From NCBI GenBank assembly GCA_001661245.1, contig KV454017.1, positions 124,001-188,000 of the forward strand: DNA of 64,000 nucleotides. Direction: 5' to 3'. The stretch comes from Pachysolen tannophilus NRRL Y-2460. Lineage: Eukaryota. This document shows, piece by piece, positions 5,701 through 41,550 of the stretch (position 1 is the first letter of the stretch; every line of letters begins with the position of its first letter). The position numbers were made by a program, and so were the translations under genes. The notes under the pieces are model-generated. The model had not been told where the DNA came from. It worked only from the letters and a program-made list of their open reading frames with translations, and made no database searches.

Positions 5701-6274
5701 TTTCTATTTTATTTTATATTTAATTACTGGGAAACATCTTCTTTTGTTGGGATAGAGAAAGATGGGAAGTAAAGCTCATTTAGTTGGGCATAAAGGGAAG
5801 AGAAGTAGGGGAAAAGAGGTATCAGTTGAAAGTAATGGTAACAGAGTAACGCTGAAGCACAAGGTTCTGACTAGTGATGATGATAACGATGATCTCTCAG
5901 GGACTGAATTTTTGAAAAACCATAAAGATAATTCTTTGTCTTTTGCTATTAAAAAGAGGAAGAGGAAGACCTAAAAAAATTGGTATTGTGGGAAACTAAT
6001 AAGAAGAAAATATGGAGCTAGGAGTTATATTGGCACTGCAGAGTTTATTAAAAATTTAGGTATATTAAGACAGGAAATTGAAGTTTTACATTCTGATTAT
6101 CAAGGTTCACAGGGTTCTTTAAAAGCTTTAGGGAGACCTAGAACACGATACTTGGNNNNNNNNNNNNNNNNNNNNNNNNNNNNNNNNNNNNNNNNNNNNN
6201 NNNNNNNNNNNNNNNNNNNNNNNNNNNNNNNNNNNNNNNNNNNNNNNNNNNNNNNNNNNNNNNNNNNNNNNNNN
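5670..6274. other. Assembly gap (N 6156-6274) with redundant, indel-containing copy of 6275-6747 on its left
   Basis: 5762-6155 repeats the start of the 6357 ORF with homopolymer indels and ends at the N run. Confidence 0.9.
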
Positions 6275-16256: not shown

Positions 16257-17984
16257 ATGATTGTTAATAGTCCGTTACTGAATATGGTTTTTAGTGGAGG
16301 AAAAGTACTAAATCGTACTTTTCAATTGCAACGCTTTTTGTCATCACTGTCTTCACTGTCATCACTATCGTCGCTGGCGAAATTGCAGAGACAAAAAAAT
16401 TTGGAAAAATATCCTGATTTAAAAGAAGCCGATTTGCTAGTAAATGGGAAACCAGATTATGTGAAATTAGTATTAACTTCTAGGGTTTATGATGTAATGG
16501 ATGAGACTCCTACAACTTATGCAACTTCTTTATCTCAAAGGCTTGGTGTTAATGTAGTTTTGAAAAGAGAAGATTTAGTTCCAGTTTTCTCTTTTAAATT
16601 ACGTGGGGCTTATAATATGATTGCTCAATTATCTTCTGATAGGTTACTGAAAGGTATTATTGCATGTTCTGCTGGTAATCATGCTCAAGGAGTTGCTTAT
16701 AGTGCTAAGAACCTTGATATTCCTGCCACTATTGTTATGCCAGTTGCTACTCCTTCAATTAAATATCAAAATGTTTCAAGATTAGGTTCTCAAGTTGTAT
16801 TATATGGTGAAGATTTTGATGAAGCTAAAGCTGAATGTACAAGATTGGCAACAAAAAATGGACTAACCAATATCCCACCGTTTGACCATCCTTATATTAT
16901 TGCAGGACAAGGTACTATTGCGATGGAAATATTGAGGCAAATGAATATCAACAAGGTAAATGCAGTCTTTTGTCCTGTTGGTGGTGGAGGTTTGATTGCC
17001 GGTGTAGGTGTTTATTTAAAAAGATTGGCACCACATGTGAAAATTATTGGTGTTGAGACTTATGATGCAGATGATTTATACCAATCGTTGAGTGCACATA
17101 AAAGAGTTCAGTTAAATAGTGTTGGAATGTTTGCAGATGGTACTGCAGTGAAACTTGTTGGTGAAGAAACATTTGACGTTTGTAAAGAAGTGGTTGATGA
17201 AGTTGTTAAAGTCTCTACAGATGAAATTTGTGCTGCTATAAAAGACATTTTTGAAGATACAAGATCAATAGTGGAACCTTCAGGTGCAATGGGTGTTGCT
17301 GGTTTGAAAAAATATATTGTTGATCATCCAGAATTAGATCATTCAAGTTCAACATATGTTCCAATTCTATCTGGTGCAAATATGAATTTTGATAGATTGA
17401 GATTTGTCTCTGAACGTGCAGTTCTAGGTGAAGGTAAAGAAGTTTTCATGATGGTGGTTATACCAGATCATCCAGGTACTTTCTTTAAATTACAATCTGC
17501 AATACATCCAAGAGCCGTTACAGAATTTTCTTATCGTTCAGATGGCAGAAATAATGGTGTTGCTCATATATATACTTCTTTCTCAGTTATAGATAGAGAA
17601 AAAGAATTAGCTCAGGTCATGCTGAGTTTGCGTAAAGAAGGTTTTGATGCAATGGATATCAGTGATAACGAAATGGCTAAATCTCATGGTCGTTACCTCG
17701 TGGGAGGTTCTGCAAATATTGAAAATGAAAGATTACTCTGCTTTGAATTTCCAGAACGTCCAGGTGCATTGACAAAATTCTTGAAAGGAATGAAAACAAA
17801 TTGGAATTTGACTTTATTCCATTACAGAAACCATGGTCATGATATCGGTAAAGTTTTAGCAGGTATAAGCGTACCTCCAGAAGATAATGAGAAATTTCAA
17901 GAGTTTTTGGATAATTTAGGATATAAGTATAACGAGGAAACTGATAATGTGGTTTACCAAAAATTTTTATTGAGAAATGATTAA
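16257..17984 (+). CDS. ILV1: Threonine dehydratase (biosynthetic), mitochondrial
   Basis: [51 protein letters not shown]; start ATG 16257 (or 16284). Confidence 0.97.
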
Positions 17985-18445
17985 ATAAACTTGTTTATAT
18001 AAGTAAGTAAGTATCTAAAAATTTATTATTATATTTTATTTTTTTTTTTTTTTACAAAACAACAACTTTGTTTAGATTCTTAAAACATTGACTTAGCATT
18101 GAGTCTATTATGAAATGAAATAAAAAGATAAAAAGCTATATAGATATAGAAAAAAAGAAAAGGCTGCTGCATTGCTAGTAATAGGACATAAAAATAAAAT
18201 AATAAAAACATATCTTTATAAAAAAAAAAAGAAAAGGAATTTGAACCTAATAAAATACGCCAAGAGCATCATTTTCACAAAAAAAAAAAAAAGAAAGAAC
18301 CTGCGTAGACCTTTCATACTTTGAGTTTTCCTTTTTCTTTCTTCTCAAGGTATTCAAAAACAGGACCGAAAAATGGGTGAAACAACAGGAGAACTAAAAG
18401 AAGTTAAATTTTCACGTTTTAAAAAAAGAGTCATGAGGCATTCTT

Positions 18446-19492
18446 TTAAATGTCAATTAAACTTGGACCCCCTTCCCCGTTGCTCTTATGCTGCTGTTGT
18501 TGAGACTGTGGAGCATTACCAAAACCATATCCTGTATAGGCCGGTATTATTCCAGTCGAAGGAACACCAGTGTATTGCGTATCAAAAAAGGGATTTGCTG
18601 ATCCATATTCTTGTTTGTAGCCTGTACCAGAAGAATTGATAAAAGTTCCTGTCTTTGTATGTTGAGCAGGAATTCTTGTGGCACCTGTATTTCCAAAAGT
18701 ATCCAAATCAGGACCAGTTGCCAATAATTGATTCAAATCAGAGTATTGCTCATTATTCTTCCGAGATCCAGTAAATGTCTGTCTTAATGGCTGGGATTGC
18801 TGAGGTTGCAGTTGTTGTTGTTGTTGTTGCAGTTGTAGTTGCAGTTGTTGTTGCAGCTGTTGTTGCAGCTGTTGCTGTAAATGATCTAAACTATTGTTAT
18901 TATTATTTTCGGATTGATGGTTCATAGCAAACGGATTATTAGAGCCTGTTTTAAGAGGTAATAATTGTTGTTGTTGTTGTTGTTGTTGTTGAGCAGCCAA
19001 TTGTTGCTGCTGTAATAGGTATGCCTGTTGTTGCAGTTGCAGCAGCTGTTGTTGTTGCAACAAGTACGCCTGTTGCAGTTGCAGTTGCTGCTGCAGTAAC
19101 AACTGTTGTTGTTGTTGTTGTTCTTGCAGTTGCAGCTGTTGTTGCAGTTGTTGCAGCTGCAAGGCTGCCAAGTCAAAATCAGAAAACTGTTGTTGGGGCT
19201 GTTGGCCAAACGCAGAGAATCCAGGATTGCCGCCGTTTTGATAAATAGGTTGTCCAAAAATATCATAACCAACAATGATTCCATATTGTGATTGCTGTTG
19301 TTGAGGCTGATCACTCAAATCCAATAAGTTTTGATTTTGTTGTTTTGATTTTCTCATTTCATCTTCTTCCAAGCTCAATTTTAATGCTTTTTGTAAACTT
19401 TCATCAGAGCTTGATCCTAACCTTCTACGTCTTTCTTCTTCTTCAGCAGTCAATCTGCTTTCTTCTAAAGCTTTTTGTAATTCAGCATCATA
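18446..19492 (-). CDS. ENT2: Epsin (Ent1/Ent2) C-terminal two-thirds, no start codon of its own
   Basis: YDAELQKALEESR and DESLQKALKLS UIMs, LLDL box, Q/A tract, two NPF motifs (TGSNNPF, SANPF), terminal clathrin box SLIDI; in-frame TAA immediately upstream of 19492. Confidence 0.88.
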   Translation of the reverse strand, partial: YDAELQKALEESRLTAEEEERRRRLGSSSDESLQKALKLSLEEDEMRKSKQQNQNLLDLSDQPQQQQSQYGIIVGYDIFGQPIYQNGGNPGFSAFGQQPQQQFSDFDLAALQLQQLQQQLQLQEQQQQQQLLLQQQLQLQQAYLLQQQQLLQLQQQAYLLQQQQLAAQQQQQQQQQLLPLKTGSNNPFAMNHQSENNNNNSLDHLQQQLQQQLQQQLQLQLQQQQQQLQPQQSQPLRQTFTGSRKNNEQYSDLNQLLATGPDLDTFGNTGATRIPAQHTKTGTFINSSGTGYKQEYGSANPFFDTQYTGVPSTGIIPAYTGYGFGNAPQSQQQQHKSNGEGGPSLIDI

Positions 19493-19735
19493 TTAATTAA
19501 AATATATTTAATTGCTTTTTAGTTTTGTCTTCAGTATCTTGTATTGGCTTTCACTTTGAATAAATTGAACTAGTGATTGATTAATTGTTTGGTTTTTTTT
19601 TTTTTTTTTTTGGTTTTTTGGTAGAAACAGAAAAAAAGATCAAAGATTAAGAGATTAAGAAATTAAGAAATTGTATTTCATTAGTTGGGGTTAATTTATT
19701 GGAAAAGAAAATTATTTTGGAAATATATATATGAA

Positions 19736-20269
19736 ATGTCAAAGTCTATTCTTCGTCAGGTTAAAAACATTGCAAATGGGTATTCCAGCGCCCAGGTTAT
19801 GGTTAGGAATGCTACATCCAATGAGCCTTATGGTCCAAGTACGGTAGAAATGGAAAATGTTGCGGAGCGTACTTTTGATAGTAGTGAATTTTTGGAAATA
19901 ATGGATATGGTTGATAAAAGATTGAATGATAAAGGTAAGAACTGGAGGCATGTTGCTAAGGCTTTAACTTTATTGGATTATTTGGTAAGATATGGTCATG
20001 AAAATGTTGTATTGTGGTCAAAGGACAATATCTATATTATAAAAACTTTACGTGAATTTCAATATACTGATGATAGTGGCCATGATCAAGGTGCTATTAT
20101 TAGGGTTAAGGCCAAAGAGTTGACCAGTCTTTTGATCAATGATGAGAGATTACGTTCTGAACGTAATCTGGCTAAGGAAAGTACTGGAAGAAGACGTAAG
20201 CATAGAAAGAATCGTGGTTACAGAGAAGATGGTTTAGATGAAGAACCAGTATTAATTTGTACAAACTAA
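19736..20269 (+). CDS. ENT2: Epsin (Ent1/Ent2) N-terminal ENTH domain, on the opposite strand from its C-terminus
   Basis: MSKSILRQVKNIANGYSSAQVMVRNATSNEPYGPS...DKRLNDKGKNWRHVAKAL...DQGAIIRVKAKEL; ends abruptly in PVLICTN*. Confidence 0.92.
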   Translation: MSKSILRQVKNIANGYSSAQVMVRNATSNEPYGPSTVEMENVAERTFDSSEFLEIMDMVDKRLNDKGKNWRHVAKALTLLDYLVRYGHENVVLWSKDNIYIIKTLREFQYTDDSGHDQGAIIRVKAKELTSLLINDERLRSERNLAKESTGRRRKHRKNRGYREDGLDEEPVLICTN

Positions 20270-20517
20270 TTATACAATTTATCTGTTCATTTCCAATACA
20301 AAATGGGGGTTTTAACTCGTTTTCTCTTATTCCATTTTATGAAAATTCGCCTTTTTTGCCTAAAACGGAGTAGATTCCTAAAACGGAAGTTACAGCTACA
20401 AAAACTTCCTAATTAAGAAGGCATAATGGTGATTAATTCAAATCTATATAGAGAAGTTCATTTCATTTCAATAAACCGATGACGAAAATGAAAAGAAATT
20501 GGGGAAAAAGAAGTAGG

Positions 20518-21972
20518 TCATCCTGTGGCAGTGGTGATGTTATTGTTTTCTGGGTGAGTTGCGTGCAAGTCGCTGGTTTTTGCTTGTATTAAATTTGTTT
20601 TAATATTGTTGGATTCGCAACCGGGACAATTATGTAAAATTTCATGGATAAAGACATCACAGTCTATACAGAAATCGTTATGGCAATTGGGGCATCTATA
20701 GCGAGAGCTGGTAATAAGCTCCTTCTTGCTCTTATTACCGTTTGTTGTGACGTTTCCGATGCTAACAGAGTTTCCTGAAGGTACAGCTTCCGGGAATTCT
20801 GTTTGACAACCAAAACAGTTGTAAGCATCATATTGTTCACTTTTGGGCAACTCGTTAAACAATTTTAAAGGAAACAAATGGTGGTAGGACCTGGCCAAAT
20901 GTGTGGACAAGATAAGCATCATGTTACAACATGGACATATTGCAGGTAATGAACAAATTTTTGATGAACAATTGGGACATATATAACCACCATAGACTAA
21001 TTTAGAATGACATGAACAGAAAGTTGGCGAGTTTTCAGAGACTCTTGAAGGAAACCCCATTTTAACTAAAGTGAATCCTTTTGTTTGTTGAGAAATTGAT
21101 TTTGTTATAGCCACTGGTGTAACAGCTTCCATTAATAATTCTTTAAAATGTGCTTCATTTAAAATAATTCCATATGAAGATTCATCTCCAAAATTTGTTT
21201 TTTTACAAATTTCTTTACATATGGCAACTTGAGCTGTTAAACCAATTATTCTAACTCTAATTTTTTCTTTTACTAAAGATTGAATAGTCTTGTGTACATC
21301 TCCAGGATCAGAAGTTAATAATGCACCAAATATAATCAATACTTCTCTTGTAGAATGTGAAGCAACATGCATTAGTAAGCCTCTTGCCATCTCTAAAACA
21401 TTTTGTAAAGTCGGATCACCTTGAGGCTCTAATCTTCTCATTGATTTCAACAGTTCAATATGATCATTAGGATTACCACTAACTTCACTAACCAACGTAG
21501 CCAACCCATTTCTCATTATAACTATACCCAATTGTGAAATAGGATTCTGATCAAAATATTCATTTACAAATTCAATAGCATATAAAATGGTTAATGAAGC
21601 TCTATTAGGTCTTAAATCTTTTTCAGCCATTACCAGTGAAAAATCTAAAACTAATATTAAAGTTCTAATAATACCTCTTTGAAAAGGAGTCACATTCTTC
21701 AAATATCTTTTCTTTCTTGCCTCCACTAATCCAGACACTATTGTCTCTAAACTTCCAGCCTCATCTTCCTTCACTATATCCCAACTCCTCTGGTAATCAT
21801 CTTCCCATGAATATCCACCTCCATTACCTGCAGCAAGTTTTCTATTTTGACTAGAATCTCCTCCACCTGTCTTACGCCTCGTTCTATTGGATATTCCTGG
21901 TCTACTATCATGATTAGAGTTCTTCACAGGTGAAGACAATTCACCAATATACTCATCATCAGATTCATCCAT
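20518..21972 (-). CDS. SSL1: TFIIH p44 subunit Ssl1
   Basis: GYSWEDDYQRSWD, TPFQRGIIR, FDQNPISQLG, vWA domain plus C4 and RING-like zinc fingers, HEILHNCPGCES. Confidence 0.97.
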   Translation of the reverse strand: MDESDDEYIGELSSPVKNSNHDSRPGISNRTRRKTGGGDSSQNRKLAAGNGGGYSWEDDYQRSWDIVKEDEAGSLETIVSGLVEARKKRYLKNVTPFQRGIIRTLILVLDFSLVMAEKDLRPNRASLTILYAIEFVNEYFDQNPISQLGIVIMRNGLATLVSEVSGNPNDHIELLKSMRRLEPQGDPTLQNVLEMARGLLMHVASHSTREVLIIFGALLTSDPGDVHKTIQSLVKEKIRVRIIGLTAQVAICKEICKKTNFGDESSYGIILNEAHFKELLMEAVTPVAITKSISQQTKGFTLVKMGFPSRVSENSPTFCSCHSKLVYGGYICPNCSSKICSLPAICPCCNMMLILSTHLARSYHHLFPLKLFNELPKSEQYDAYNCFGCQTEFPEAVPSGNSVSIGNVTTNGNKSKKELITSSRYRCPNCHNDFCIDCDVFIHEILHNCPGCESNNIKTNLIQAKTSDLHATHPENNNITTATG

Positions 21973-24294: not shown

Positions 24295-25248
24295 TTTTTC
24301 TTTTTTCTTTCTTTTTTTTTGGCTTTCCAATATATAGAAAAAAAATTATATTTACTATTGAAAACTTGAAATTTGTATAGGTTTACAAAAACTTTAAAAG
24401 AAAAAACAAAAAAAAAACACAAAATCACTATCTTTTTTTCCTTTAAAAAACCAATAAAGATAAATAAAATAAGCGAAAAGCAATTAAAATGAAAATAATT
24501 GAAATAGAAATAAAATCAATGCAATTTATAGTAATAATTAATATTAATTGTATTTGTATTTGTATAAGTATAGTTTAACAAAAATGCTTTTTACCTAGTT
24601 ATTTCTTGCCGGGATGACAGCGAACCTTTAAAAGAAAAACAAAAAAACAAAAAACAAACAAACAAACAAACAAAAACAAACAAAAACACCAAGGTTTAAA
24701 TATATATATATATATATATATAGATATATAGACTTTGACTTTTCAATAAACCAAAGACTCAATTTGTAAATAAACTGATGATATTTTCTTTTATTAAAAA
24801 AAAAAAAAATTTAGTAAATTTATTGTAATAATTATATAGTATAAATTAATCTTAACTTTTTTTGCTTTTGTTTTAACGCTGAAAAAGAGTTTTTTTTTCT
24901 TTTTTCCTCTTTTGAAGAAAGAAATTTGCGGAAAAAATACAAGCTAGAAACAGCCCCAAATTGCATCATCATCATCTCTAGCATACACACATGGCCCCTA
25001 TGTGTAACAGCCCTAGTAGTTTTTTAAAAAACTTTCAAGAGCCCCTAAAAATAAAATTACCTGTTTCGTAAATTAATACTTTCAAACACTACCATGTTTA
25101 ATTTTCTTTTTTTTTATATAAAAAACTATGTGAAAAACTGAAAAAAATTTTTTTTTTCTTTCTTATATAGTAAGAAAGAGAAACACATTTAGTTAGTAAG
25201 TAGAGTGAATAGAGTGAGCGAGTGGATTTGTGTTTTTTTTTTTTGGGG

Positions 25249-26363
25249 ATGGTAGATTTTAAAGGAAAGTTGGTTCTTGCGCCTATGGTTAGAATAGGAG
25301 AACTTCCTACGAGGTTATTGGCATTAAAATATGGATGTGATTTAGTATGGGGTCCTGAGATTATTGATAAGAAAATTTTAACATGTGAAAGATTTGAAAA
25401 TGAAAAATTAAATACTATTGATTTTTTATCAACTAAGAATCAAAATTCTGGATCTAAAAATAATGAAAATTTTTCTAATTTAGTATTTAGAACTTATCCA
25501 TTAATTGAAAAAGATAAATTAATTTTTCAAATGGGTACTTCAAATCCTGATCTTGCTGTTTCTGCTGCAAAAATTATTATTAATGATGTTAGTGGTATTG
25601 ATATTAATGCTGGTTGTCCAAAACATTTTTCAATTCATAGTGGTATGGGCGCTGCTTTACTTTCCACTCCAGAATTATTACAAACAATTCTTAAAAGACT
25701 TGTTGAAGAAGTTGGTAAACCAAATAAAAAACCAATTAGTGTTAAAATACGACTTTTACCAACAAGAGAAGAATCATTAAATTTAATTTCAAAATTACTT
25801 ACAACAGGAATATCAAATTTAACTTTACATTGTAGAACAAAGACAATGAGAAATAGAGAACCTCCAATAAGAGATTATTTAAAAGAAATTATAGAAAAAT
25901 GTAATGAACATAATGTAAATTTTATAATAAATGGTGATATAAAATCTAGAAAAGATTTTTTTTTTTACAATCTCAATATGGAAAATCTATTGGTTGTATG
26001 ATTGCTAGTGCTGCTGAATTAAATCCAACTTGTTTTAATGAATTTGGTGAATTACCTTGGTATATTACATGTAAAGAATTTATTAAATTATGTGATCAAT
26101 TTGAAAATCATAAAGGAAATACAAAATATTGTTTAACAAGAATGATACCAAGTGGTAAATCTAAATTTTCAAAAAAATTACATGATTTAATATCAAGAGC
26201 AAAAACTCATGATGAAATTAAAAAAATAATTTTACAAGATTTAAATGAAAATGATATCTTAAAAGAACAAGATATTAAAAAAAGAAATATACAACATGAT
26301 TATTCACAACCAAATTCTTTTAAAAAGATAAAAGTTGGCACTACTGGTGATGATGAAACATAA
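25249..26363 (+). CDS. SMM1: tRNA-dihydrouridine(20) synthase Dus2, split by frameshift at T11 run 25956-25966
   Basis: LVLAPMVRIGELPTRLLAL, GIDINAGCPKHFSIHSGMGAALL; second frame continues LQSQYGKSIGCMIASAAELNPTCF...NTKYCL. Confidence 0.9.
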
Positions 26364-30196: not shown

Positions 30197-30536
30197 GTAT
30201 GTATTATAACAGCGGTTAACAATTCCAACATTATATATCAACACTCTTTTTTGGGATAAACTTCTTTTATACTTTTAAATTTTTTTTTTTTTTTTTTTTT
30301 TTTTTTGAGATGTTTTGTATTTTTACCGCCGTTATAAATTAGTGCGAAAAATTATTAAATTTCAACATTTTTTAAATTTTATTAAAAAGGAAAAAATTGG
30401 GTACCACATCAAGAGTGTGATAGCAAAAGAATTTTTTAAAATAAAGCTGTAAAATGCTTTTTTAGTTTATGTTGTATTTGTTGTGTCATGTTTTAAAGTA
30501 TAAAGTAACCGCCACTAACAAACAAGTACAATTTAG
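30197..30536 (+). other. Spliceosomal intron upstream of the cytosolic ACC1 start
   Basis: GTATGT 30197, CACTAAC 30513, TTTAG 30536. Confidence 0.8.
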
Positions 30537-30689
30537 CCAATTCTTTAATTTTACAACTAGATATAATATTATTAGCAGTCAAGGCGGTTTCATTTGTAAA
30601 AGATTATTTTCAATAGAAACAGCGCGTAGAGGGAAATATTTTGCTCAAAAATATAATAATAACAAGAAATACCTAAAATATAAATATAA

Positions 30690-30727
<38 letters not shown>

Positions 30728-30729
30728 TC

Positions 30730-33700
30730 ATGTCAGAATTGCATAAAAAAATCCCTTCACATTTCTTTGGTTTAAATTCAGTGGAAATTGCAGAACCTTC
30801 AAAAGTAAAAGATTTTGTGAAAAGTCATGGAGGGCATTCGGTTATATCTTCCATTTTAATTGCAAATAATGGTATTTCTGCTGTAAAAGAAATTCGTTCT
30901 GTTAGAAAATGGGCGTATGAGACTTTTGGAGATGAAAGAGCTATACAATTTGTTGCAATGGCAACACCTGAAGATTTGGAAGGTAATTCAGAATATATTA
31001 GAATGGCCGATCAATATGTTGAAGTACCAGGTGGTACAAATAACAATAATTATGCAAATGTAGATTTAATTGTTGATATTGCTGAAAGAACAAAAGTAGA
31101 TGCTGTATGGGCAGGTTGGGGTCATGCTTCAGAAAATCCAGATTTACCTGAAAAATTGGCTGCTTCACCGAGAAAAGTCATTTTTATTGGTCCACCAGGT
31201 TCTGCAATGAGATCATTGGGTGATAAAATCTCTTCTACAATTGTTGCCCAACATGCAAATGTACCTTGTATTCCATGGTCTGGTTCAGGTGTTGATCAAG
31301 TACAAATTGATCATGAAACAAAATTAGTTTCTGTTGCACCTGAAATTTATGCTAAAGGTTGTTGTACTTCTGCTAAAGATGGTTTAGAAAAGGCCAAAAA
31401 AATTGGATTCCCAGTAATGATTAAAGCTTCTGAAGGTGGTGGTGGTAAAGGTATAAGAAAAGTAGATAATGAAAAAGATTTTGAAGCTTTATATCATCAA
31501 GCTGCAAATGAAATCCCAGGTTCACCAATTTTTATCATGAAACTTGCAGGAAGTGCAAGACATTTAGAAGTTCAATTATTAGCAGATCAATATGGTACAA
31601 ATATTTCATTATTTGGTAGAGATTGTTCTGTTCAAAGAAGACATCAAAAAATTATTGAAGAAGCTCCAGTAACTATTGCTAAACAAAATTCTTTTAGAGC
31701 TATGGAAAAATCTGCTGTAAGATTAGGTGAATTGGTTGGTTATGTTTCTGCAGGTACCGTTGAATATCTTTATTCTCATGATGAAGATAAATTTTATTTC
31801 TTGGAATTAAATCCAAGATTACAAGTGGAACATCCAACTACTGAAATGGTTACAGGTGTTAATTTACCAGCAGCTCAATTACAAATTGCAATGGGTATTC
31901 CAATGCATAGAATTAGAGACATTAGATTATTTTATGGTGTGGATCCACATACTTCCACAGAAATTGATTTTGAATTTGCATCACCAGAATCTTTAAAAAC
32001 ACAAAGAAGACCTGTTCCAAAAGGACATTGTACTGCATGTCGTATCACTTCTGAAGACCCAGGACAAGGTTTTAAACCTTCTGGTGGTTCCATCCAAGAA
32101 TTAAACTTTAGATCATCTTCAAACGTATGGGGTTATTTCTCAGTCAGTAATAAATCATCTATTCATTCTTTTTCAGATTCTCAATTTGGACATATATTTG
32201 CCTTTGGTGAAAATCGTCAAGCTTCAAGAAAACATATGGTTGTTGCTTTGAAAGAATTATCCATTAGAGGTGATTTTAGAACAACTGTCGAATATTTAAT
32301 TAAACTTTTAGAAACACCTGATTTTGAAGATAATACAATTACTACTGGTTGGTTGGATGAATTAATTTCAAAGAAATTAACTGCAGAAAGACCAGATGAA
32401 ACTATTGCCGTTCTTTGTGGTGCAGTAACAAAAGCACATGTTGCATCTGAAGAAGATAGAAATGAATATATTCATTCATTAGAAAAAGGTCAAGTTCCTG
32501 GAAAAGATTTGTTAAAAAGTATATACCCAATTGAATTCATATATGAGGGTAAAAAATATAAATTTACAGCTGCAAAATCTGCAAATGATAGATATACATT
32601 GTTCATTAATGGTTCTAAATGTGATATTAGTGTAAGATCTTTATCAGATGGTGGATTATTATGTGCATTGGGTGGAAGATCTCACTCTATTTATTGGAAG
32701 GATGAAGTTGCAGCAACAAGATTATCAGTTGATGGTAAGACATGTTTGTTGGAAACAGAAAATGATCCTACCCAATTAAGATCACCATCACCAGGTAAAT
32801 TAATCAAATATTTAGTTGATAATGGTGAACACGTTTCGACAGGTCAACCATTTGCTGAAGTTGAAGTAATGAAGATGTGTATGCCTTTAGTCGCTCAGGA
32901 GGACGGTACTATTCAATTACTTAAGCAACCAGGTTCTACAGTTGCTGCTGGTGATATCTTGGCCATATTATCTCTTGATGACCCTTCAAAAGTTAAACAT
33001 GCCTTACCATTTGATGGCTCACTTCCAGAAATGGGATCACCATCAGTTGAAGGCACAAAACCAATTCATAAATTTAAATCATTGTTATCAGTCTTACATA
33101 ATATCTTGGATGGTTTTGATAATCAAGTTGTTATGAATGCTACTTTAAAAAGCTTAATTGGTGTCTTGAGAGATCCAGCTTTACCATATTCAGAATGGGC
33201 TCAACAAATTTCAGCTTTACATTCAAGATTGCCACCTGATTTGGATGCATCACTTGAAAAATTAGTTGAAAGAACCAGAGCTAGAAATGGTGAGTTCCCA
33301 GCTAGACAAATTTTAAAACTTATTGAAAAAGTCGCTAAAGACCCATCAACAGATTCCTTATTCTCTCAAGTTGTTGAACCATTGGTTGCTATTGCAAATA
33401 GTTATATTAATGGTTTGGAATCTCATGAACATAAAGTTTTCAGTGATTTGTTAAATGAATATTACCGTGTTGAAAGCTTATTCTCAGGTCCAAATGTTAG
33501 AGAAGAAGATGTCATATTAAAATTAAGAGATGAAAATAAATCCGATTTGAACATAGTTATTGCTACAGAATTGTCCCATTCAAGAGTTGGTGCAAAAAAT
33601 AATTTAATATTGGCTATTTTGGATATTTATCAACCAATCTGTCAGTCTTCTGCTGAAGCTTCAAATGCTCTACATACTCCATTAAAGCAAATTGTTGATT

Positions 33701-36700
33701 TGGAATCTAGAGCTACAGCTAAAGTAGCATTGAAGGCAAGAGAAATCTTAATTCAATGTGCTTTACCTTCTATTAAAGAGAGATCTGATCAACTTGAACA
33801 TATTTTGAAATCATCTGTTGTTGAGACTCATTATGGTGAAGGAGCAAATGATCATCACAGATTACCACAATTTGATATTCTTAAAGACGTTATCGATTCC
33901 AAGTACATTGTTTTTGATGTTTTGACACAATTCATTGTTCATACAGATCCTTGGGTTGCTGCTGCCGCAGCTGAAGTTTATATTAGAAGAGCTTACAGAG
34001 CTTATTCTATAAATAAATTAATCCATCACACTACAAAAGGTTTACCAATCGTTGAGTGGAAATTCCAATTGCCATTATTGTCAACAGCTGCTTATAATGC
34101 AGTTCCACAGGCTAAGAGTATCTTTGGTAAAGAAATGAATAGAGCTGTTTCAGTCTCAGATTTAAGTTTCTTAATTAGCGAAAGTGACTCACAACCTTTA
34201 AGAACAGGTATTTTTGTTCCAACTGCACATCTTGATGATGTTGATGAACTGTTGGCTAAAGGATTAGAATATCTTCCAAGACGTTCAAATTCAAATGGTC
34301 CAGCTCCTGATAGATCTAATGGTGATCACTCATCGTCTTCGGATGTTTCCACAAATGTAGCTAATGTTTTCATTGGTAACGTGGATGGCTATGACAGTGA
34401 AAATGAAGTTCTTCAAAAATTACATGAAACATTAAGTGATTTCAAGGCTGATTTGAATGCTTGCTCTATCCGTCGTGTTACTTTCTTTTTCAGTGATAGG
34501 CCTGGTTCTTATCCAAAATATTATACATTCAAAGTACCTAATTTTACTGAAGATGAAGTTATTCGTCATATTGAACCGGCTTTGGCTTATCAATTAGAAT
34601 TGGGAAGGTTATCGAATTTCAATATCAGACCAGTCTTTACCGACAACAGAAATATTCATGTTTATGAAGCCATTGGTAAGAATTCTTCTGGTCTTGATAA
34701 AAGATACTTTATTAGAGGTATTATTAGAACTGGTAAAATCAGAGATGATATCACTACATCCAAATATTTGATTTCAGAAGCTAATAGATTGATGTCTGAT
34801 ATTTTGGATGCATTAGAGGTTCTTGACAACACCAATACTGATTTAAATAACATTTTCATTAATTTTGGTGCAGTTTTCAATGTCACTCCAGAAGATGTAG
34901 AAGCAGCTTTTGGTGGTTTCTTGGAAAGATTTGGTAGAAGGTTATGGAGATTGAGAGTAACTGGTGCTGAAATCAGAATTATGTGTACTGATCCAACTAC
35001 CGGTGTTCCTTTCCCACTTCGTGCTTTGATTAACAACGTTTCTGGTTATGTTGTTAAATCTGAAATGTATATGGAAGTTAAAAACGCTCAAGGTGAATGG
35101 ATATTCAAATCCCTTGGAACTCCAGGAGGTATGCATCTTAGACCTATTTCAACTCCATATCCAACTAAGGAATGGTTACAACCTAAACGTTATAAGGCAC
35201 ATCTTATGGGTACTACTTATGTTTACGATTTCCCAGAATTGTTCCGCCAGGCTACAGTTTCACAATGGAAGAAGCATTCCCCTGATGCCAAGATTCCGGA
35301 TGATGTATTTTCTGCCAATGAATTGATAATTGATGATTCTGGTGAATTAACCGAGGTTTCAAGGGAACCAGGTGCTAACAACGTAGGTATGGTTGCATTT
35401 AAAGTAACTGCCAAGACTCCTGAATATCCTCGTGGTCGTCAATTTATTATTGTTTCTAACGATATCACTTATAAGATCGGTTCATTTGGTCCAAAGGAAG
35501 ATGCTTACTTTAACCAAGCTACAGAATTAGCTAGAAAATTAGGAATTCCAAGAATTTATCTTTCTGCTAACTCAGGTGCAAGAATTGGTATTGCAGAAGA
35601 ATTATTACTCTGTTACAACGTTGCTTGGAATGAAGAAGGTAATCCAAACAAAGGTTTCCGTTACTTATATTTGACTCAAGAAAATCTTACCGAGTTAGAA
35701 AAAGCTGGTAAGAGCGGTTCTGTTATTACAGAAAGAGTTGTTGAAGATGGTGAAGAACGTTTTGTTATTAAATCCATCATTGGAGCCGATGAAGGTCTTG
35801 GTGTTGAATGTTTGAGAGGTTCAGGTTTGATTGCAGGTGCCACTTCAAAAGCATACAAAGATATTTTCACTATTACCTTGGTCACTTGTAGATCTGTCGG
35901 TATAGGTGCATATTTGGTTAGGTTGGGTCAAAGAGCTATTCAAGTTGAAGGACAACCAATCATTTTGACAGGTGCTCCAGCTATCAACAAGTTATTAGGT
36001 AGAGAAGTTTACTCTTCTAATTTACAATTAGGTGGCACTCAAATCATGTACCGTAATGGTGTTTCACATTTAACTGCTTCTGATGATTTGGAAGGTGTTG
36101 AAAAAATTATGGATTGGTTGTCGTACATTCCAGCTAAACGTAATATGCCAGTACCTATCTTAGAATCTCCAGAAGATTCTTGGGATAGAGACATTGATTA
36201 CGCACCAACTAAGAATGAACCTTACGATGTTAGATGGATGATTGAAGGTCGTGAGACTGAATCTGGCTTCGAATATGGTATGTTTGATAAAGACAGTTTC
36301 TGTGAGACTTTGTCTGGTTGGGCTAAAGGTGTTGTTGTTGGTAGAGCACGTCTTGGTGGTATTCCAATGGGTGTTATTGCGGTCGAAACAAGAACAGTTG
36401 AAAACTTGTATCCAGCAGATCCAGCAAACCCTGATTCGATTGAAATGATGATTCAAGAAGCTGGTCAAGTTTGGTATCCAAATTCTGCTTTCAAGACTGC
36501 TCAAGCTATTAATGATTTCAATAATGGTGAACAATTACCATTGATGATCTTGGCCAATTGGAGAGGTTTCTCTGGTGGACAAAGAGATATGTACAATGAA
36601 GTTCTCAAATATGGTTCATTTATTGTTGATGCTTTAGTTGGTTTCAAACAACCTATCGTAACATACATTCCTCCTACTGGTGAATTGAGAGGTGGTTCGT

Positions 36701-37407
36701 GGGTTGTTGTCGATCCAACTATTAATGCTGATATGATGGAAATGTATGCTGACGTTGACTCTAGAGCTGGTGTCTTAGAACCAGAAGGTATGGTTGGTAT
36801 CAAATACAGACGCGATAAATTATTAGCAACTATAGAAAGATTAGATAAACCATATGCTACCTTGAAAGCCAAGTTAGCTGAACCTGGTTTACCTTCAGAA
36901 GAACATTCAGAAATTGCCAAACAATTAGCCGCAAGAGAAAGAGCCTTGTTACCAATCTATGCTCAAATATCAGTTCAATTTGCTGATTTACATGATAGAT
37001 CAGGCCGTATGCTTGCTAAAGGTGTCATCAGAAAAGAATTAGAATGGGTTAATGCTCGTCGTTTCTTCTTCTGGCGTCTCCGTCGTAGATTGAACGAAGA
37101 ATATTTGTTCAAGAGAATTGCAGATGAAGCACCAAACTTGACAAGAAAACAACAATCAGAAAAATTCAAACTGTGGTTACCAATTACTCTCGACACAGAT
37201 AACGATAGAGAATTGTCCAATTGGATTGAAGCTAATCATCAAGAATTGAACACCCGCATCAAAGAATTGAAAAAGGAAACTGTTAAGCAAAACCTTGCAA
37301 ATTTGATTAAGACTGATATAAAATATACCGCTGAAGGTTTAGCAACTATTCTTGAGCTTTTACCTCAAAAGGAAAGAGAGATTTTCATTAACTCGCTTAA
37401 AAAATAG
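30730..37407 (+). CDS. ACC1: Acetyl-CoA carboxylase (cytosolic start MSELHK at 30730; probable N-extended mitochondrial isoform from about 30165)
   Basis: BC domain ILIANNGISAVKEIRS, biotin site EVEVMKM, CT domain ANWRGFSGG. Confidence 0.98.
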   Translation: MSELHKKIPSHFFGLNSVEIAEPSKVKDFVKSHGGHSVISSILIANNGISAVKEIRSVRKWAYETFGDERAIQFVAMATPEDLEGNSEYIRMADQYVEVPGGTNNNNYANVDLIVDIAERTKVDAVWAGWGHASENPDLPEKLAASPRKVIFIGPPGSAMRSLGDKISSTIVAQHANVPCIPWSGSGVDQVQIDHETKLVSVAPEIYAKGCCTSAKDGLEKAKKIGFPVMIKASEGGGGKGIRKVDNEKDFEALYHQAANEIPGSPIFIMKLAGSARHLEVQLLADQYGTNISLFGRDCSVQRRHQKIIEEAPVTIAKQNSFRAMEKSAVRLGELVGYVSAGTVEYLYSHDEDKFYFLELNPRLQVEHPTTEMVTGVNLPAAQLQIAMGIPMHRIRDIRLFYGVDPHTSTEIDFEFASPESLKTQRRPVPKGHCTACRITSEDPGQGFKPSGGSIQELNFRSSSNVWGYFSVSNKSSIHSFSDSQFGHIFAFGENRQASRKHMVVALKELSIRGDFRTTVEYLIKLLETPDFEDNTITTGWLDELISKKLTAERPDETIAVLCGAVTKAHVASEEDRNEYIHSLEKGQVPGKDLLKSIYPIEFIYEGKKYKFTAAKSANDRYTLFINGSKCDISVRSLSDGGLLCALGGRSHSIYWKDEVAATRLSVDGKTCLLETENDPTQLRSPSPGKLIKYLVDNGEHVSTGQPFAEVEVMKMCMPLVAQEDGTIQLLKQPGSTVAAGDILAILSLDDPSKVKHALPFDGSLPEMGSPSVEGTKPIHKFKSLLSVLHNILDGFDNQVVMNATLKSLIGVLRDPALPYSEWAQQISALHSRLPPDLDASLEKLVERTRARNGEFPARQILKLIEKVAKDPSTDSLFSQVVEPLVAIANSYINGLESHEHKVFSDLLNEYYRVESLFSGPNVREEDVILKLRDENKSDLNIVIATELSHSRVGAKNNLILAILDIYQPICQSSAEASNALHTPLKQIVDLESRATAKVALKAREILIQCALPSIKERSDQLEHILKSSVVETHYGEGANDHHRLPQFDILKDVIDSKYIVFDVLTQFIVHTDPWVAAAAAEVYIRRAYRAYSINKLIHHTTKGLPIVEWKFQLPLLSTAAYNAVPQAKSIFGKEMNRAVSVSDLSFLISESDSQPLRTGIFVPTAHLDDVDELLAKGLEYLPRRSNSNGPAPDRSNGDHSSSSDVSTNVANVFIGNVDGYDSENEVLQKLHETLSDFKADLNACSIRRVTFFFSDRPGSYPKYYTFKVPNFTEDEVIRHIEPALAYQLELGRLSNFNIRPVFTDNRNIHVYEAIGKNSSGLDKRYFIRGIIRTGKIRDDITTSKYLISEANRLMSDILDALEVLDNTNTDLNNIFINFGAVFNVTPEDVEAAFGGFLERFGRRLWRLRVTGAEIRIMCTDPTTGVPFPLRALINNVSGYVVKSEMYMEVKNAQGEWIFKSLGTPGGMHLRPISTPYPTKEWLQPKRYKAHLMGTTYVYDFPELFRQATVSQWKKHSPDAKIPDDVFSANELIIDDSGELTEVSREPGANNVGMVAFKVTAKTPEYPRGRQFIIVSNDITYKIGSFGPKEDAYFNQATELARKLGIPRIYLSANSGARIGIAEELLLCYNVAWNEEGNPNKGFRYLYLTQENLTELEKAGKSGSVITERVVEDGEERFVIKSIIGADEGLGVECLRGSGLIAGATSKAYKDIFTITLVTCRSVGIGAYLVRLGQRAIQVEGQPIILTGAPAINKLLGREVYSSNLQLGGTQIMYRNGVSHLTASDDLEGVEKIMDWLSYIPAKRNMPVPILESPEDSWDRDIDYAPTKNEPYDVRWMIEGRETESGFEYGMFDKDSFCETLSGWAKGVVVGRARLGGIPMGVIAVETRTVENLYPADPANPDSIEMMIQEAGQVWYPNSAFKTAQAINDFNNGEQLPLMILANWRGFSGGQRDMYNEVLKYGSFIVDALVGFKQPIVTYIPPTGELRGGSWVVVDPTINADMMEMYADVDSRAGVLEPEGMVGIKYRRDKLLATIERLDKPYATLKAKLAEPGLPSEEHSEIAKQLAARERALLPIYAQISVQFADLHDRSGRMLAKGVIRKELEWVNARRFFFWRLRRRLNEEYLFKRIADEAPNLTRKQQSEKFKLWLPITLDTDNDRELSNWIEANHQELNTRIKELKKETVKQNLANLIKTDIKYTAEGLATILELLPQKEREIFINSLKK

Positions 37408-40783: not shown

Positions 40784-40887
40784 ATTTATATATATATTAT
40801 GTTAGATACAAGTAATATAACTATATTTTTAATGGTAAAGTCAACAGAGTTTTTTTGTTTCATAAAAGCAAAAAAAAAAAAAAAAAG

Positions 40888-41550
40888 NNNNNNNNNNNNN
40901 NNNNNNNNNNNNNNNNNNNNNNNNNNNNNNNNNNNNNNNNNNNNNNNNNNNNNNNNNNNNNNNNNNNNNNNNNNNNNNNNNNNNNNNNNNNNNNNNNNNN
41001 NNNNNNNNNNNNNNNNNNNNNNNNNNNNNNNNNNNNNNNNNNNNNNNNNNNNNNNNNNNNNNNNNNNNNNNNNNNNNNNNNNNNNNNNNNNNNNNNNNNN
41101 NNNNNNNNNNNNNNNNNNNNNNNNNNNNNNNNNNNNNNNNNNNNNNNNNNNNNNNNNNNNNNNNNNNNNNNNNNNNNNNNNNNNNNNNNNNNNNNNNNNN
41201 NNNNNNNNNNNNNNNNNNNNNNNNNNNNNNNNNNNNNNNNNNNNNNNNNNNNNNNNNNNNNNNNNNNNNNNNNNNNNNNNNNNNNNNNNNNNNNNNNNNN
41301 NNNNCGAATATTCATTATATCCCATCCAATGCAAACAAACCAACCACATGAGATTATTTAAACTTGTGAAGAAGAGAAGAAGACCGAATCCAAACAGTAT
41401 TGGTCATTCAAATATTAGAGGAGTTAAACCTACTTATTATAGATAAATTTATATATATATTATGTTAGATACAAGTAATATAACTATATTTTTAATGGTA
41501 AAGTCAACAGAGTTTTTTTGTTTCAATAAAAGCAAAAAAAAAAAAAAAGA
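40888..41550. other. Assembly gap (N 40888-41304) followed by redundant copy of 40644-40887
   Basis: 41305-41550 duplicates the pre-gap sequence with single-base insertions. Confidence 0.9.

Follow-up and report, generated by a model that had tools for sequence, protein, structure and literature searches.

The closest described relatives of the gene considered here are Ent1 and Ent2 of Saccharomyces cerevisiae and Ent2 of Candida albicans, in which an ENTH domain carrying R62, H72, Y100, and T104 precedes two UIM-like motifs, a Gln-rich region, two NPF motifs, and an end of the form L-I-D-hydrophobic. In the available text of a paper on C. albicans Ent2 (PMC10128014), these four residues are named as important for the function of yeast ENTH domains, and the ENTH domain alone is described as making S. 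cerevisiae double mutants in ent1 and ent2 viable again; the claim of the first-pass annotation that the ENTH domain by itself supplies the essential epsin function in S. cerevisiae is thus in print there. In the window—that is, the whole stretch of 64,000 nucleotides of Pachysolen tannophilus DNA analyzed here (positions 1–64000)—a gene of this kind is written as two halves, with a block of less than one kilobase standing as its reverse complement.

The block itself is best compared with other inversions. Assembler errors of the inversion type are usually found at gaps or with inverted repeats on both sides. The block resembles the inversion-type misassemblies of draft records in that it stands opposite to the reads, with both junctions lacking read-derived support, but differs from them in being bounded by neither inverted repeats nor an N run. 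It also resembles the short real micro-inversions that arise by two-break end joining or template switching, being a sub-kilobase block within a gene and having sharp breakpoints; those inversions, however, are present in the DNA of the organism, whereas here the inverted form is absent from the contigs of four sequencing runs. Site-specific invertible DNA switches are known of the Hin/Gin/Pin type and from the FLP/FRT system of the yeast 2-micron plasmid. They share with this locus a segment that can be read in two orientations to give, in principle, different products, but here there are no flanking inverted sites, no recombinase match among 31 ORFs, and no second orientation in the contigs. 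Overall, the record very probably carries an inversion error that arose between the reads and the sequence, with the organism having an ordinary Ent1/Ent2-type epsin gene.

The epsin gene as recorded and as restored

In the window as recorded, the plus-strand ORF of the ENTH half runs from the ATG at 19736 to a stop codon at 20267–20269 and encodes 177 aa, of which residues 16–139 matched the Pfam ENTH family (PF01417) over the full profile (1–124 of 124; E 1.1e-46). Identities of this half are 72% with a Komagataella epsin of 504 aa, over 148 residues, and 62% with an S. cerevisiae Ent1; R62, H72, Y100, and T104 are all present. On the minus strand, the frame from 19492 to 18446 is open for 348 aa, with a stop codon and no ATG at its head, and aligns with the same Komagataella epsin's C-terminal part, its distal portion showing 58% identity over 144 aa (E 1e-40). 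The first-pass annotation had described two epsin halves pointing apart, the C-terminal one lacking a start codon, and the ORFs, the Pfam match, and the Komagataella alignments show this to be true of the record. The locus lies on an AT-rich (31% GC), budding-yeast-like scaffold.

The C-terminal half matched no Pfam family at E <= 0.01; when the search was extended to E <= 10, UIM_2 was returned with an E-value of 0.012 and 16.2 bits, under its 21-bit cut-off. The two UIM-like motifs were located by a simple pattern and by alignment with 14 full-length yeast epsins, picked from 120 listed. The LIDI end is, from the motif definition, what we take to be a clathrin-box-like motif. Coordinates of these and the other features are collected in Table 1.

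Table 1. Features of the epsin locus and its neighbors in the window (positions are those of the window as recorded)
Feature	Position	Strand	Basis or remark
Reverse-complemented block, 755 bp	19495..20249	.	Read-derived contigs, 4 runs
ENTH-half ORF	19736..20269	+	171 native codons, the joint codon, 5 codons from non-coding DNA (tail VLICTN), then stop; Pfam ENTH
5′ leader and proximal upstream DNA	19495..19735	+	21% GC; long T tract near 19586-19612; adjoins 20250 in the contig-supported form
Remaining upstream intergenic DNA to the SSL1-like stop	20250..20517	-	Carries both CCTAAAACGGA copies
C-terminal half of the epsin gene	18446..19494	-	348 codons and stop, plus bases 1 and 2 of the joint codon; lacks its own start codon
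First UIM-like motif, directly past the joint	19457..19489	-	Simple pattern; aligned with the equivalent motif in 14 epsins
Second UIM-like motif	19373..19405	-	Simple pattern and alignment
Gln-rich (CAA/CAG) region, 45% Q, about 150 residues	18785..19237	-	
NPF motif 1	18929..18937	-	Motif pattern
NPF motif 2	18587..18595	-	Motif pattern; region conserved with the Komagataella epsin
C-terminal LIDI	18449..18460	-	Translation and motif pattern
TATTAATT, left junction	19491..19498	+	Chance-level octamer
TATTAATT, adjoining the right junction on its right	20250..20257	+	Chance-level octamer
ILV1-like threonine dehydratase	16260-17981	+	Neighbor, window-upstream side
SSL1-like TFIIH subunit	21972-20521	-	Neighbor, window-downstream side

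Un-flipping the block at the joints given by the read-derived contigs yields a single open frame of 520 aa from the first ATG, and the earlier claim that flipping back restores a continuous 520-aa epsin is thereby borne out. The contig joints lie between 19494 and 19495 and between 20249 and 20250, so the block is 755 bp long and not 761 bp; the boundaries proposed in the first-pass annotation (19492..20252) were 3 nt out on each side. Two bases differ between the un-flipped form proposed then and the contig-supported form. The joint codon, given earlier as GTA (Val), is GAA (Glu) in the contigs, and the re-fusion at a shared AT dinucleotide also falls away, no letters at the joints fitting both sides ('both' = 0). 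Furthermore, the perfect 12-nt palindrome AATTAATTAATT proposed for the other junction is absent when the contig-supported joints are used. Thus, the split is a real feature of the record, while the breakpoints, the joint codon, and the palindrome required correction.

In the alignment with the 14 full-length epsins, the protein from the window showed no gap at the joint, and its first UIM starts right past the joint in the same alignment columns as in the relatives. Upstream, the whole spacer in the contig-supported form is 509 bp long and reaches the stop codon of the SSL1-like gene; it includes both copies of CCTAAAACGGA (20359–20369 and 20377–20387), in agreement with the earlier description of repeated sites of this sequence in the rejoined upstream DNA. 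One base-perfect flip accounts for the apparent ORF with ENTH alone, for the lack of a start codon in the C-terminal half, and for the re-fusion in frame. An in-frame, 'restorable' split of this kind follows from any precise block flip, real or artefactual, and is by itself no evidence of a switch.

The features of Ent1/Ent2-type epsins found here are the ENTH domain at the N-terminus, the pair of NPF motifs, and LIDI at the C-terminal end. As for ubiquitin-interacting motifs, two candidates fit a simple pattern and align with the UIM region of the 14 epsins, and the Pfam UIM_2 match is sub-threshold. A single collinear gene for both halves is absent in the window and present in the contigs of all four runs. 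Judged by its predicted protein, the gene is a regular Ent1/Ent2-type yeast epsin; once un-flipped, it differs in nothing substantial from S. cerevisiae Ent1 and Ent2 or C. albicans Ent2, its Gln-rich tract being long. Among the matches listed, the closest full-length epsins showed 72% identity, and the best short ENTH proteins 66–70% over most of the query. The search of the protein collection returned neither a fused nor an ENTH-only form of an epsin from P. tannophilus, and neither a sister species nor a second annotated assembly of the organism was found in the protein matches listed.

With respect to codon usage, CTG makes up 15 of the 47 Leu-family codons of the C-terminal half (18449–19492, minus strand), mostly in Q-L-Q repeats, and 1 of the 177 codons of the ENTH half. 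All translations were made by the standard code; whether CTG is read as Leu, Ser, or Ala would alter the look of the Q-L-Q repeats, not the conclusion.

Read-derived contigs across the block

Seven public runs were listed for positions 18300–20600, and 0.96 of the sampled words were present in five of them, namely X1–X4, which belong to one sample and one study, and X5, which belongs to a second sample and study; X6 and X7 contained next to no words. No RNA run was listed among those containing the locus. Contigs were compared with the window over 18000–21000 for X1, X2, X3, and X5 (four of the seven listed runs, with X4, X6, and X7 left out). The evidence is at the level of contigs assembled from reads, not raw reads, and a joint was counted as bridged when its shorter side exceeded 31 letters. 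X1–X3 come from one sample, and X1 and X3 are possibly one data set filed twice, so the independent support amounts to two studies rather than four.

In each of the four runs, a 1190-nt contig covers 19001–19494 and passes, with zero letters between, into the complement of 20249–19625, and a contig of 2083–2107 nt covers the complement of 19573–19495 and then 20250–21000. The two joints, 19494 to 20249 and 19495 to 20250, were both recorded as 'opposite strands', with one contig each per run and shorter sides of 255 and 79 letters, respectively. No collinear crossing of either window junction was present among the contig pieces listed for the four runs. The depths of the junction bins (19414–19514 and 20222–20322) were 17.4 and 16.8 in X1, 196.5 and 190.8 in X2, 16.8 and 16.3 in X3, and 121.1 and 122 in X5, and in all four runs these values equal the length-weighted depth of the two strand-switching contigs alone; for X2, (81 x 198.7 + 20 x 187.8)/101 = 196.5 and (28 x 198.7 + 73 x 187.8)/101 = 190.8. 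Since the two contigs account for all of the junction-bin depth, neither junction is covered by any other contig, and the depth of the junction contigs, being the same as that of the flanks, argues against a half-depth allele. In addition, no base differences or indels relative to the window were listed over the covered parts in the four runs, indicating that the runs and the record derive from one strain. The fraction of 0.96 of sampled words common to all five runs fits a loss of little beyond the junction words.

The fused form is therefore the sole form in the read-derived contigs: the junctions of the record are unsupported, and the alternative junctions occur at full depth, as in an inversion-type misassembly. 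The first-pass annotation had offered misassembly as one of its options and had proposed comparing the two orientations in the reads, with support for the fused orientation only as the outcome pointing to an assembly artefact. Carried out on contigs, this comparison gave the fused orientation only, with both junctions fused in all four runs (two studies) and not a single contig carrying the junctions of the window.

On this reading, the organism would have one uninterrupted 520-codon epsin gene, transcribed toward lower coordinates between the SSL1-like and ILV1-like genes, of which the record would give the block at 19495–20249—the leader and the first 171 codons—as its reverse complement. 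The flip would most likely have been acquired in assembly, in finishing, or in later handling of the draft scaffold, and looks like that of a block reverse-complemented when pieces were joined. The record is visibly a draft, as seen from its N runs at 6156–6274 (119 bases), 6283 (1 base), and 40888–41304 (417 bases) and from a dihydrouridine-synthase-like (Dus-like) gene whose frame breaks at a run of 11 T. A balanced, base-perfect flip with neither flanking inverted repeats nor a gap is, however, unlike what assembler errors classically leave behind. Contigs drop rare variants, and a minority of cells with the window orientation could on that account escape notice; a rare but genuine second state of the locus, generated by a repeat-independent, reversible flip of the promoter-plus-ENTH block that would turn full-length epsin into an ENTH-only protein, enriched in the source population and missed by contigs elsewhere, is nevertheless scarcely credible.

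The DNA behind the record could also carry an inversion private to it, and the runs may differ from the source data of the record. In that case, two-break blunt re-ligation or a replication template switch would have inverted the block in the DNA or clone that was sequenced, leaving a gene with ENTH alone and silencing the C-terminal half, while other stocks of the strain kept the gene intact. End-joining of two breaks can yield a balanced flip without microhomology, and the flip observed here is indeed balanced to the base and without microhomology ('both' = 0); R62, H72, Y100, and T104 are intact as well. Such a clone could live, since S. cerevisiae ent1 ent2 mutants regain viability with the ENTH domain alone, according to the available text of PMC10128014. 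On the other hand, the fused form alone is present at full depth in all four runs and both studies, with no listed base differences from the record, and three of these runs come from one sample, possibly the very source of the record. Furthermore, no more than 241 bp of the ENTH ORF's own upstream DNA would still precede it after the flip. A private inversion is thus unlikely; if true, the flip would constitute a natural ENTH-only epsin allele, which the reads do not support. With the split absent from the reads, the viability of ENTH-only cells has no bearing on the interpretation.

Two features of the contigs lie away from the joints. The contigs of all four runs end in the long T tract, a low-complexity stretch at about 19574–19624 that they skip, and the leader is unbridged by any single contig. 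In the CAG/CAA tract (19054–19104), weak joints that skip 46 or 48 letters were set aside, their sides of 20–24 letters being under the 31-letter rule, and many loose ends into unrelated sequence were seen at 19026–19161 in the Gln tract. These short joints and loose ends probably reflect other Gln-repeat loci or repeat collapse, with variation in the length of the tract also possible.

Sequence at the joints and the case for a biological inversion

The octamer TATTAATT is present at the left junction and just right of the right junction, and the observation of the first-pass annotation that the same sequence stands at both breakpoints is to this extent accurate. In the window as a whole, however, the octamer occurs 15 times, against 17.4 +/- 4.4 expected, and at least 15 copies were counted in 77 of 100 shuffles. 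The joints are, furthermore, placed differently with respect to the two copies, one lying inside its octamer and the other immediately ahead of its own. No flanking inverted repeat above background was detected within +/-40 nt of the joints: exact inverted matches there extend to at most 7 nt, whichever form is taken, and a length of at least 7 nt was reached by 238 of 490 random pairs of positions spaced 755 nt apart. A repeat substrate for a biological inversion is thus absent. A mechanism based on a palindrome or inverted repeat was rejected on the chance frequency of the octamer and on the background-level 7-nt match, and the palindrome-driven micro-inversion put forward earlier was accordingly not upheld.

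The same measurements bear on the proposal of a reversible DNA switch between full-length epsin and an ENTH-only form, with the record having caught the rarer state. The presence of TATTAATT, with its palindromic core ATTAAT, at both window junctions would suit such a switch, and both states would be viable in principle, to judge from the available text of PMC10128014. The second orientation, however, was found in zero contigs of the four runs, the joints occupy non-equivalent positions in the two octamer copies, the octamer itself is at chance frequency, and inverted repeats around the contig-supported block do not rise above background. Nor was a recombinase family matched in Pfam among the 31 ORF translations of the window (4 + 27), of which 7 were without any family at the thresholds used. 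A switch is accordingly very improbable indeed. Of the interpretations offered in the first-pass annotation, misassembly is supported, and palindrome-driven inversion and the reversible switch are not.

Consequences for annotation and the surrounding window

Run on the record, gene callers would give an ENTH protein cut short at 177 aa and would overlook or wrongly call the C-terminal half. Comparisons of epsins, or counts of gene loss, across yeasts could mistake this for biology.

The gene content of the window is that of ordinary yeast housekeeping. The Pfam scan of its 31 ORF translations matched no mobile-element or recombinase family; its matches include Mpp10, NOC3, ATP sulfurylase, GH76, threonine dehydratase, Ssl1, Nramp, and a Tim17-family protein, as well as a subtilase, an M28/TFR-like peptidase, MBOAT, CCDC47, and a CAF1C/RBBP4-type WD40 protein. 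An acetyl-CoA carboxylase, identified by a Pfam match, occupies a 2313-aa frame at 30466–37404. The ORFs listed around 40784–41446 are artefacts of reading through N. The Dus-like gene (25213–26363, plus strand), which matches positions 4–198 of 311 of the Pfam Dus profile, has a stop at 26001 and continues in another plus-strand frame from about 25950 to 26363. This change of frame coincides with the 11-T run at 25956–25966 and may represent a homopolymer-length error of the draft, a real frameshift, or a small intron.
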